Source: Octopus vulgaris
Lineage: Eukaryota
Direction of reading: 5' to 3'
DNA length: 64,000 nucleotides
NCBI GenBank assembly: GCA_951406725.2
Contig: OX597815.1
Coordinates: 155,310,001-155,374,000, forward strand
A program made the translations under genes and the position numbers. This document shows positions 1-56,436 of this stretch, one piece after another (positions within the stretch are counted from its first letter, which is position 1; every line of letters starts with the position of its first letter). Below the pieces are notes generated by a model. It saw nothing but the letters and a program-made list of their open reading frames with translations, was not told the origin of the DNA and ran no database searches.

Positions 1-2403
1 AACATTTTTGCCAGCTCGCCGCCTTTATAGAATGAAAAATTGTACAACTACTACATTACATTTTTCGCTCTGAAGTTCACTGTCCTCATAAACACTAGTA
101 AACCAGCTTCGTTTTATAGCAAGTTACTTTAATTTCTCCGTTCAAATAAATATTTTAATTTTCTTACTAAGCTACTTAAGAATACTGAGTAGACTTTCAG
201 ACTGTTCGCTGCAAACAACTTTAGATAATCCGTGAAGAAAAGATGGCCGATGAGCTTTATCTCTCCTCTACCCATATAGTATACCGTTTTTTGTTTGTTT
301 GTTTGTTTGTTATTTCTGTTTTTTATTAAACAATTTAAAACCAACAAGTATAAGATGAAATGAAGATCAGAATTATATTCTCTTCGAAATATCCCAGTAG
401 AAGTTGGCGTTTATAGTCACGGTGTAACTGGTAACTGTAAGAATTATCTCACGTTCTTTGCTATTGTATTTTTGAAATTAACCATGTAGGACCTTGTCAA
501 AAGCATTCTTGCATTCCGTCCTCAATGCATATGACAAATTGATATTGCGTAAGTTGTCAACACCAGTATTGTCTTGATATTCAGGACCCATATATTTCCG
601 CGTTCAGCTCTTGTTTCACAAACATTTTTATTTGTATACGTTTAATAATCTTATTTGATATTATTTTGGAGACCAATTTATAGATTAGTAGCAGGTAAAA
701 GATGAATCGTTTGCAGTTCTTTTTTGTTGTCCTACTGGTAAGGAGCTATTCGGGTATTTGTCTGAGAAGACAGTTGACAGTTGATGTCAGTTGCCTGGGA
801 GCACAATATGACAAACAGCAGCAACAAGGTTTTAAATGTTATCAATGTCAGAATTTTCCAAATACACGAAGCTGTTTAAAACAAGCTTTAAATCAGATAC
901 AATAATATTAAGGGAAGGTGGGTTTTAAAATTTTATTGTTTTATTTGTTGTTCTTGTTAGTGTTGATGTTGTTGTTGCTGCTCTGACTTGTTTTCCATGA
1001 ACAGTTATTAGTTTCCGTTATCAAGAATGGAGGTCCCAAAAGTATTGGTTTCTTACGATGTTTATTTGAAGAAAAAAGTGACTTTAGGATTTTAGCCTTG
1101 GAACATTGAAGTATTCACTTCTTTTATCTTGGCTTGAAAAGATAATAATTGTATTTGGATATTTTTCTATATTTTCTTACATAATTATTTACCAATATTC
1201 TTTGTTTTGGGAACACGATGGCAAGAAGTTTGAATGTTTTCGGAAATTTTCAAAGTAACGACGGATTGTCGCACAGAAAAAAAAAAGCAACATTTAAAGA
1301 AACATTTGCACTACACAGAAACAATGACAATTTCACAAAGTAGCAACCAGGAACGAAGAAAACAAAAGCAATAAGGCTTTTTTAAACTTTTTTTTCATAC
1401 TGTTGTTTGTCAAAAATAATTCTGAATATGTGTCAGCTCTGAGAACAAAAACAAAAAGACTTTAGTAAAACATACCAGGAGACCTTATGTTCTTTCCTGA
1501 TAAGTTTATCAAACAAATGGCAAGTAGAAAAGTTACATATCTTGTCTTATAAAAAAAAAGGCGGCAAGTTTTCAGTGTGGCTCTAAGTGAACAATGAACA
1601 AAATCTTGGCCAATATACGAAATAATGTAGTTTCCATTAATCAAAGACGAACTCAAGGGACGAAATCCCTGATTGTTAAGAGTTAGGACAAGGCCAAGAA
1701 ACAGATATGCTGTACAACAGCGCACTAGTTTATAATCACGTGGAATAAATATTATTAGTGATATTAATTCTTATTCTATTGATGCTTTTGCAATGCATTA
1801 AGGGTAGGTAGTGAGTGCTGGATCGATTAAAAATTACCTGTGCTTGGGTAGGGGTTCTCTGTGTATATGTAAGTCTTTATATCCTCTGAAGACCACAGTC
1901 TTCTTGGTGCTGCACTCCATCGTTCGCACAACATGAAAAGCAACACTGTTATGGTGAAGGGCCACCGAGCAGCCTCATTTATACCCTTCCTCCTTTGAGC
2001 CCTGTTCCTTCCAAGATGTCTATTTTAAATTCCTTAAAAATATCCATTTCGTCTTTTTCTTTAGCATCTCTGCCCACTGATTGAATTTTTTAATGAAATT
2101 TTATCCTTATATTAGAAATGTATATATATATATATATATATATATATATATAGAGAGAGAGAGAGAGAGAGAGAGAGAGAGAGAGAGAGGTTATAAGCGG
2201 TAATGGTGTCATTGAGACCCAAAGGTGTCAGATAATGCTGAATAAGTGCTATAGTCAGACCATAGTTAAGTTCCAAGTTCAGTGATTTTGCAAATAAGGG
2301 GTTCAACGTTGGTCATATGTCAGCATGTGTATATAAAATTTTTTTTTCGTAATGAGATAAAAAACCAAGGCTGAGTAGATTTTAGAACATTTATAGATAG
2401 AAG

Positions 2404-2451
2404 GCCTTACAGCTGTTTCCAGGATATTTATTATATCCCTTCATCGGAGAC
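2404..2451 (-). ncRNA. Minimal type I hammerhead ribozyme-like motif
   Basis: Minus strand reads GTCT-CCGATGA-AGGGATAT aataa ATATCCTG-GAAA-CAGCTG-TA-AGGC: helix I, core (U4->C variant), helix II hairpin, GAAA, palindromic helix III, UH. Confidence 0.7.
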
Positions 2452-2802
2452 GGTATGAGAGGATAGTAAAGTAATAGTTAATTTATATATGATACAAAAT
2501 GGAGAGTGAGGTGGAGGAAAGAAAATAGATGCGAGATATGTAGGGATATTGAATTTGTAGATTCATTTTTTAGGCAAAATGGTATACACTGTGTATAGAC
2601 TCGATATTTGGAATGCTCAATTTAAAATACTTTGGGATTTTACTCATAAAGTATTGGAATCTTACATGTATACCATTCTGCCTAAAAGTGGATCTACAAA
2701 TACAATATCCCTACATATCTCACATCTATTTTCTTTCCTCCACCTCACTCTCTATTTTGTATCATATTTAAATTAACTATTACTTAACAATCCTCTAACA
2801 CT

Positions 2803-2850
2803 GTCTCCAATGAAGGGATATAATAAATATCCTGGAAACAGCTGTAAGAC
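2803..2850 (+). ncRNA. Minimal hammerhead-like motif (core mutated to CCAATGA)
   Basis: GTCT-CCAATGA-AGGGATATaataaATATCCTG-GAAA-CAGCTG-TA-AGAC, with perfect GTCT/AGAC helix I. Confidence 0.62.
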
Positions 2851-54353: not shown

Positions 54354-55777
54354 ATGGAACGAATAGTCCGCAAGAAATTAATCATGTTCCTTGAAGAAAA
54401 TGACTTGCTGACTGACACCCAGCATGGATTTCGACCAGGTAGAAGCTGTCTAACACAGCTCCTGCAATACTATGCCTGAGTGTTAAAACAGCTACTAAAT
54501 GGTTAAGCTACTAAATGTGGATGTGATATATCTCGACTTTGCAGAAGCTTTTGATAAAGCCAACCATGGTATGTTCTGTCACAAACTGCGTGATCTCGGC
54601 ATAGGCGGAAAACTTGGAGAGTGGCTGCATAACTTCCTAAAAGATAGAAGACAGGCAGTGATGGCCAATGGAGCCACCCAAATAACAAATGGTGCTCCAC
54701 AGGGCACTGTCTTAAGGCCACTGCTGTTCATAGTGGCCCTTTCAGACATGACCTCAGTTGCTAAGATGGCCACCCTTGCTTGCTATGCAGATGATACAAA
54801 AGTCTCTCAGAAAATACAAAACCCTGCAAATATTGCACATCAGCAACGGGAGTAGGATACAATATACAGGTGGGCTGAGGACAACAACATACAGTTTAAT
54901 GCAGGAAGTTCCAAGCCCTGCGCTACCGGCACACAAAGGTAAACGACATGCAGACTGGATACACTGGCCCGAGAAGAATTGCAATTCCTGAGTCAAAATC
55001 AGTGCGTGACCTGGGCATTGATATGAGCAATGATGCATCTTTCCAAGTACATGTTGCCAATTTGGTAATAAAATGCAGATGGCTAGTTGGATGGATCCTC
55101 CGAACTTTCAGAACAAGAGAGAAGGAGACACTGATGGTCCTTTGGAAGACATTCGTCCTCATCCGCTTGGACTACTGCTTCCAACTATGGTCACCACACA
55201 ATATAAAGTTAACAGCAGAACTCGAAGCAATCCAACGAAGCTACACTAAGAAGATCGTCTCAATGCAACATATCAGCTACTGGGAAAGACTGAAAGTATT
55301 AAAACACTTCTCCCTGGAGCAAAAACAGGAGAGATATGCAGTGATATACATCTGGAAAATCCTGGAGAGCCTTGTCCCGAATTTTGGCATTGAAAGTTAC
55401 CCCAACAGCAGAACGGGGTGCCACTGCATGGTGCCAAAGATCCCAACATCACCATCAAAATACAGGACTGGATATTGCAACAGCTTGGGTTTCAGGGGAC
55501 CACAACTCTTTAATATTCTCCCTAAATGCCTGAGAGACCTGCATGGTGTGGATGTAGTTTTCTTTAAAACTAAACTGGATCTCTTCTTGTCAGGGGTTCC
55601 AGATGAACCTACCTCTCGGCAGGTAACACAGATGCGGGCAGCGGTGTCGAACTCCCTTGTTGACCAAGTGCTACGTATCAGAGGTGGTTTCACATACTAG
55701 TGTAGCTCATTCAACGGTGGTGCCCCAGCATGGCCGCAGCTTTCGGACTGAAACATTTTTAAGGATTTAAGGATTTA
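54354..55777 (+). pseudogene. 5'-truncated CR1-clade LINE (reverse transcriptase and C-terminus) between (TA)n tracts
   Basis: QHGFRPGRSC, YLDFAEAFDK, GAPQGTVLRPLLF, YADD, RDLGI, RLDYC..WSP motifs, with stops and frameshifts. Tail ends (taaggatt)2. Confidence 0.93.
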
Positions 55778-55856
55778 TATATATATATATATATATATAT
55801 ATATATATATATAGATAGATAGATAAGAAAGTTTGTTTGGTAAAGCACGTGGGTGA

Positions 55857-56436
55857 ATATATAAGAAAATAGTAAAGAGTGAAAAAACGACAGAAGGCTT
55901 AAATGTTAAAAAATATATATATTTGCGTCAAAATGTCTGGAGAATATTGGAAAAATTTTTTTCCTCCTTAAAATGACATAATTTTATAATTTTTAAAGAA
56001 ATACCGGTTTCGCAGTTAGCTCTTCAAATTTCTTGTGACTTAATGTTTATTTTTAATAACGTAATCCTTGTATTTTTGCTACGGAGACTCAACTATCCGA
56101 ACTCAATAATACAGAGAAATTCACACTAAAGGAAAAAAATTTTTTTAAGCGATTATCTCCCTTACACCGGAAGAAATCACTCACTACTTTCCCTTATTTA
56201 GAACTCTCCGTAGCAAAAATACAAGGATTACGTTATTAAAAATAAACATTAAGTCACAAGAAATTTGAAGAGCTAACTGCGAAACCGGTATTTCTTTAAA
56301 AATTATAAAATTATGTCATTTGGAGGAGGGAAAAAAATTTTTCCAATATTCTCCAGACATTTTGACGCAAATATATATATTTTTTAACATTTAAGCCTTC
56401 TGTCGTTTTTTCACTCTTTACTATTTTCTTATATAT
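55857..56436. mobile_element. Young foldback element (arms 55857-56087 / 56205-56436) with (TA)n nearby on both sides
   Basis: Arms are almost perfectly reverse-complementary. Hammerhead-like motif in each arm (55996-56034 minus, 56258-56296 plus). Confidence 0.9.
56258..56296 (+). ncRNA. Variant minimal hammerhead-like motif
   Basis: AAGAAA-T-TTGAAGA-GC taact GC-GAAA-CCGG-TA-TTTCTT. C3->U and a one-nt register ambiguity in helix I. Confidence 0.55.

Follow-up and report, generated by a model that had tools for sequence, protein, structure and literature searches.

Four hammerhead-bearing foldbacks of Octopus vulgaris as probable head-to-head 3' ends of Penelope-like elements

What are the four short inverted repeats, all with hammerhead ribozyme motifs, that lie in a 64,000-nt stretch of the Octopus vulgaris genome (assembly GCA_951406725.2, contig OX597815.1, positions 155,310,001 to 155,374,000; the whole of this stretch is called the window here)? 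A sequence-only reading of the window had left two answers side by side, namely, one-off, extremely truncated insertions of Penelope-like elements (PLEs) or a class of non-autonomous hairpin retroelements. Our analysis favors the first, and we put at about nine in ten the probability that each hairpin consists of two short 3' ends of one PLE family, placed head to head, only one of the two arms bearing a tail, and that each was a single, separate insertion. Comparison of the window with itself found foldbacks at all four places (2344-2912, 29340-29739, 42369-42678, and 55857-56436), with arm-to-arm identities of 92.6% in element 1, 93.8% in element 2, 95.9% in element 3, and 99.1% in element 4. 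No similarity was detected when the arms of the different elements were compared with each other, and the description of four unrelated inverted-repeat elements stands. Their limits had been drawn too narrowly, each element being longer by a family tail that is present on one arm only (2190-2336, 29740-29787, 42679-42824, and 55824-55856). The parts are as follows, where F1 to F4 are the families to which the arms belong.

2190-2336, minus strand: F1 tail, confined to the left arm of element 1, a roughly 150-nt extension also found on one arm of many family copies (limits read by eye).
2337-2588, minus strand: left arm of element 1, the 3' end of PLE family F1, from arm comparison.
2586-2918, plus strand: right arm of element 1, without a tail and followed by (TA)n, from arm comparison.
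2586-2588: junction overlap of element 1, ACA, unique in the genome.
2404-2451, minus strand: left hammerhead of element 1, type I, with a U4C core, a 4-bp stem I, a 7-bp stem II, and a palindromic helix III.
2803-2850, plus strand: right hammerhead motif of element 1, with G5A, likely dead to judge from its sequence.
29340-29533, minus strand: left arm of element 2, family F2, without a tail; hammerhead at 29424-29527 with a canonical core and a long loop II.
29532-29739, plus strand: right arm of element 2; hammerhead at 29552-29657.
29532-29533: junction overlap of element 2, TA, unique in the genome.
29740-29787, plus strand: tail of element 2, followed by a TA-rich tract; the same extension occurs in F2 copies.
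42369-42470, minus strand: left arm of element 3, family F3, with the 3' half of the motif only, without a tail and abutting (TA)n.
42469-42678, plus strand: right arm of element 3; its first base is the A of an initiator-like site, and the hammerhead at 42544-42626 is complete.
42469-42470: junction overlap of element 3, AT, with four genomic occurrences.
42679-42824, plus strand: tail of element 3, followed by (TA)n.
55824-55856, minus strand: 33-nt tail of family F4 in element 4, abutting (TA)n; F4 copies have two discrete 3' ends.
55857-56087, minus strand: left arm of element 4; atypical motif at 55996-56034.
56085-56436, plus strand: right arm of element 4, without a tail and followed by (TA)n; atypical motif at 56258-56296.
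56085-56087: junction overlap of element 4, AGA, unique in the genome.
56085-56129, plus strand: last 14 codons and stop of the F4 open reading frame (ORF) for a reverse transcriptase (RT) plus GIY-YIG endonuclease; the same C-terminus is found in longer copies.

Two general statements about these elements need a small correction. They had been called non-coding, which holds except at 56085-56129, since the supposed spacer of element 4 opens with the final 14 codons of the F4 RT-endonuclease ORF. Likewise, the outward ends do usually point toward (TA)n, the exception being the left end of element 2, which does not abut such a tract.

Do the hairpins multiply as units? Pattern searches across the source genome (2.8 Gb, 227 contigs), from which the junction and arm counts derive, gave a single match for each of the junctions of elements 1, 2, and 4 and four for that of element 3, against 2999, 114, 1856, and 110 matches for arm patterns of similar length in F1, F2, F3, and F4, respectively. 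This disparity speaks against a class of hairpin retroelements, while the unique junctions, together with the link to GIY-YIG and RT frames described below, support one-off truncated insertions. Samples of F3 and F1 were also picked irrespective of the junction. In the former, 17 of 25 insertions were head to head, with 17 distinct junctions; in the latter, it was 8 of the 39 usable loci, with 8 distinct junctions (40 had been taken, one of which gave no usable alignment). For F4, visual matching of opposite motifs, restricted to the first 100 of the 110 listed, yielded 29 head-to-head pairs with 29 distinct spacings (69 to 4844 nt) and no tail-to-tail pair. The long-spaced F4 pairs carry RT and endonuclease in their arms, and the window elements thus appear as the short end of one series.

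A non-autonomous hairpin that is transcribed as a whole, processed by its hammerheads, and re-inserted could be read from the four dispersed loci that share the element 3 junction and from the canonical cores in both arms of element 2. However, those four loci split over two subfamilies and two tail sides (right in two, left in two), and one side of the junction is a hot spot for F3 5' ends, discussed below, which explains its recurrence. The other three junctions are unique. Among look-alike spacings that were fetched (13 loci of F3 and 6 of F4), all differed bar one identical F3 pair, and this pair has 2 kb of flanks in common, i.e., it is a segmental duplication. The motif is, moreover, predicted to be buried in the whole hairpin. 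Amplification as a unit is therefore highly improbable in our view and, for these four elements, already largely refuted. At two sets of loci (L294 and L295; L013, L016, and L018), segmental duplication has multiplied foldbacks, the flanks being shared.

Each arm is a member of a repeat family of the source genome. Upstream of the arms, each of the four families leads to a GIY-YIG frame of the same orientation, and an RT is also linked in three of them (F1, F3, and F4). The connection is direct in F4, where the arm comes immediately after the RT plus endonuclease ORF, in a single frame. In F3 the arm was found within 1.5 kb in 28 of 30 endonuclease loci, two of which have the RT in the same frame. 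Three F1 loci join the endonuclease to the arm and, at separate loci, an RT is located upstream in 3 of 30 endonuclease loci, whereas the F2 endonuclease lies about 1.2 kb before the end of the arm. Pfam support falls below the curated cut-offs (RVT_1, E value of 4e-6; GIY-YIG, E values of 0.004 to 0.03), so that the PLE assignment is carried by the motifs as defined by Craig et al. 2021 (PMC8557442). The F1 and F2 endonucleases share with the Hydra clade of that paper the CxCX5C linker, CxxC, and CxH, all of which are present. The F3 frame has CxxC and CxH and differs from that clade in an asparagine-rich stretch and the lack of a CxCX5C linker; in F4, a CX2-5CxxC linker and CCHH endonuclease residues could be read. 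By eye, the RT motifs of F1 and F3 are like those of a Hydra clade protein listed there, and the (TA)n preference reported for the clade is common to the window families. On these motifs F1 to F3 look Hydra-type and F4 looks Neptune/Nematis-type, the latter two clades not being told apart. The supplement of the same paper includes an octopus member, Hydra-1_Obim, with a hammerhead and a (TA)n preference; the Hydra-1_oBim hammerhead given there is unlike all four motifs, and F1 to F4 are thus other families. Long asparagine-rich stretches between RT and endonuclease were observed in the F3 ORF at three loci (L244, L258, and L261), as described for rotifer PLEs (PMC3846280).

This continuity with coding elements also bears on an origin at the DNA level, be it a rearrangement, a fold-back artefact of the assembly, or a transposon resembling miniature inverted-repeat transposable elements (MITEs), with terminal inverted repeats. 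Long inverted arms would be expected from any of them, and the 99.1% identity between the arms of element 4 fits as well. But arms that differ by 1 to 7%, that end at two fixed family sites and run on into retrotransposon ORFs, in structures whose size and centre vary freely, leave such origins with hardly any plausibility.

The one-sided tail is nearly invariant. It was found in 17 of 17 and 25 of 26 head-to-head pairs of F3, in all 6 of F4, and in 15 of 17 of F1; with all families pooled, 1 of 81 rows had a tail on both arms and in 9 none was detected (two loci entered this tally twice). The arms of one locus also tend to be of one kind. Discordance at subfamily sites was 12% between arms of the same F3 locus versus 36% when arms were re-paired (44 pairs), and 8.5% versus 38.5% in F1 (17 pairs). 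A derivation of the two arms from different parents was considered for these two families, and the low discordance within loci does not support it in aggregate. Finally, the four junctions of the window all overlap by 2 to 3 nt, where random joining would be expected to give this in 17 to 18% of cases each, and 11 of 12 insert-free F3 junctions overlap by at least 2 nt as judged from BLAST ends.

A route to such structures is suggested by in vitro work on a lizard PLE (PMC11167929). [quoted passage not shown] Along these lines, the RT-endonuclease of the octopus elements would nick an AT-rich target, in most cases (TA)n, on both strands, and two complementary DNAs (cDNAs) would be primed, with RNA from a single source subfamily as the template. 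One of them would begin at the outer start site, and so include the tail, and the other at the inner site, leaving it out. Both would halt early or run off the 5' end of the RNA, and their far ends would then be joined, either via a short insert or via microhomology of 2 to 3 nt. The hammerhead would be carried passively, as the motif of the pseudo-long terminal repeat (pLTR) of the family, apparently conserved in the source elements.

The main rival for the two-cDNA step keeps the PLE origin and has the inverted arm produced by fold-back self-priming of a single cDNA or on an antisense template (compare PMC3846280). It accounts for the shared subfamily sites and the short junction overlaps, and loci L063 and L065, where inversions are nested and three segments meet at the junction, point to template switching. 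A simple fold-back copy would, however, repeat the outer end of its template, yet the tail is found on exactly one arm, whether the longer or the shorter, and at many junctions the arms are unequal and a unique spacer or inserted bases are present. We consider self-priming rather unlikely.

Several points weigh against single insertions of paired cDNAs. In the F1 sample picked irrespective of the junction, only 5 of 8 pairs had the one-sided tail and 3 had no tail, and these 8 pairs showed no excess of microhomology; in F2, 3 of 7 pairs had the one-sided tail and 4 had none. Outside the window the overlap lengths derive from BLAST ends and are possibly inflated. Concordance of the arms could alternatively be due to gene conversion after insertion. 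The element 3 junction recurs at four loci, as said, and another F3 junction at two. Regarding the source elements, no RT was reached in the two long F2 loci examined, both of which are truncated before any RT. The family loci sampled were the best-scoring or first-listed ones, not random draws, and we infer the two-cDNA step from DNA end products plus one in vitro study in another clade.

The 5' ends of the F3 copies point to where some of these cDNAs may have stopped. Measured from the inner 3' end, 13 of the 42 arm ends of this family fall at 196 to 215 nt, with just 4 lying farther out. When copies with the sequence just inside this hot spot were inspected, 11 of the first 30 (357 listed) lost family homology within ca. 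4 nt. The family sequence has TATAA located 28 nt before TCATT, and the right arm of element 3 begins on the A of the latter. We take these two motifs to be a fit to the TATA box and initiator consensus. To judge from the sequence, such copies may be run-offs to a transcription start. Inspection by eye of the F3 5' ends for an extra G stemming from the cap had an ambiguous outcome. No similar pile-up was found among the 40 loci of F1, and the lengths of F4 are evenly spread. Taken one step further, the stubs would be a record of Penelope insertion, with paired cDNAs from one source on opposite strands, begun at the two start sites on either side of the tail, and many short F3 copies being not broken fragments but 5'-pLTR-primed run-offs that reach the transcription start, a proposal that we hold tentatively, at somewhat less than even odds. 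If it is true, thousands of copies would make the mechanism of PLEs testable from genome data, and the genome would have been seeded with long templates for double-stranded RNA.

Where does this leave the hammerheads? A relaxed descriptor, controlled with 30 shuffles, retrieved seven motifs in the window versus a mean of 0.1 in the shuffled sequences. Six of the seven are inside the four elements, on the strands originally assigned to them, minus in the left arm and plus in the right. The sole match to a stricter descriptor was the right arm of element 3, and no hammerhead family appeared among the 150 of 216 Rfam matches listed for the window, which were simple-repeat noise. Three of the elements had been credited with complete motifs in both arms. 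This is correct for the sequence span, but a canonical core (CUGANGA) is present in both arms only in element 2. The left core of element 1 is CCGAUGA (U4C), the commonest form of F1 (38 of 62 copies), and its right core, CCAAUGA, adds G5A to U4C. It has been reported that U4C reduces activity in vitro yet is enough for a viroid, and that cleavage is impaired by insertions near C3 (PMC3088659). The left arm of element 3 is missing the 5' half of the motif. In element 4, both arms have the core UUGAAGA, with U3 opposite G8 and stem I one base out of register, and this motif is uniform in F4, the 100 listed of 110 genomic copies being identical at both positions that the search pattern did not fix.

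In the other families, mismatches in the core amounted to 2.9% (F1), 1.6% (F2), and 2.0% (F3) versus 7.7, 9.8, and 4.0% elsewhere, the latter values being inflated by the counting of gaps. Together with a shift from G-C (53) via G-U (20) to A-U (6) at pair 5 of stem II in 81 F3 copies, this lower variation would fit selection acting on the source elements. The hammerhead of F4, the youngest family (97 to 99% identity among scored copies), is atypical throughout, and cleavage might accordingly be dispensable or weak in a recently active family.

In the hairpins, whose 3' ends point outward, transcription in either polarity produces the antisense arm ahead of the motif, and the predicted cost of the hammerhead fold is 60 to 164 kcal/mol in RNA of the whole hairpin versus 2 to 15 in a single arm. 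According to these folding predictions, the motif would be locked in a duplex within a whole-hairpin transcript and the copies are most likely inert stubs, and the viroid- or retrozyme-like design proposed from the sequence alone looks weak. Assembled contigs from four runs gave family-wide cover when compared with element 3, with none spanning the stretch and no usable ends, and they were used neither for nor against expression. The window also has an additional minimal hammerhead of another family at 44045-44071 (minus strand) and, at about 29143-29170 (plus strand) and thus immediately to the left of element 2, a similar motif whose core is a variant one.

Other foldbacks and retroelement remnants surround the four elements. 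A GIY-YIG remnant starting at about 43377 on the plus strand sits inside a short inverted pair (43284-43690), which is probably a fifth head-to-head PLE stub, and another PLE family has left a GIY-YIG remnant at 27969-28416 (plus strand, locus L020). The 576-bp foldback at 30669-31244 is 91% symmetric around a 4-nt centre, and the scans found no hammerhead in it. Other short repeats form inverted pairs at 49166-49834 and 15888-17306, and remnant frames labelled by eye as similar to long interspersed nuclear element-type retroelements lie at 54900-55700 (plus strand) and 13230-14366 (minus strand). Of the 48 long open frames, 13 were read and proved to be mostly simple-repeat frames plus retroelement remnants.

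The elements are ordinary, in the sense that they represent undescribed families of a known class of retrotransposons with a known insertion scar. We found no literature description of families F1 to F4 or of a PLE-derived hairpin unit, within a coverage that was incomplete and had repeat databases outside it. A note of caution is that such foldbacks mimic viroid-like or MITE-like designs. They also provide a sizeable natural collection of PLE end products. According to Craig et al. (PMC8557442), how PLEs form inverted structures is still undefined, and the one-sided tail, the same-source arms, and the 5' hot spot all bear on that.

The closest known systems are the inverted insertions of endonuclease-positive (EN+) PLEs, for which the same authors describe an inverted 5'-truncated copy, a one-sided tail, and (TA)n targeting. 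As in the legend to their Fig. 2 and in Pen2a_Av (PMC3846280), the octopus stubs have a head-to-head copy, a tail at one end, (TA)n, and a hammerhead near the 3' end. The window families show the EN+ PLE features of a tail at one end, variable 5' truncation with an adjacent inverted copy, and a pLTR hammerhead (atypical in F4). They differ from the insertions described there in being so short that little or no ORF is left and in the F1 and F3 tails of about 150 nt instead of 30 to 40. With regard to the ribozymes, Cervera and de la Pena 2014 (PMC4209133) reported dual minimal hammerheads on opposite strands, 100 to 700 bp apart. The short stem I and palindromic helix III of those type I metazoan PLE motifs are shared, whereas loop II is long in F2 (about 70 nt) and F3 (about 40 nt), U4C prevails in F1, and F4 has U3 opposite G8 and an extra base beside stem I. 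Non-LTR (long terminal repeat) retrozymes (bioRxiv 10.64898/2026.07.22.740005) are, like the stubs, non-coding, PLE-derived, and equipped with a type I hammerhead. They are, however, defined there as tandem units, arranged head to tail with the motifs on one strand, while the stubs are head to head and have no repeated unit. What the octopus copies add to the known PLE layout is modest, namely, a nearly invariant one-sided tail and, in F3, a pile-up of 5' ends at a TATA/initiator-like site.

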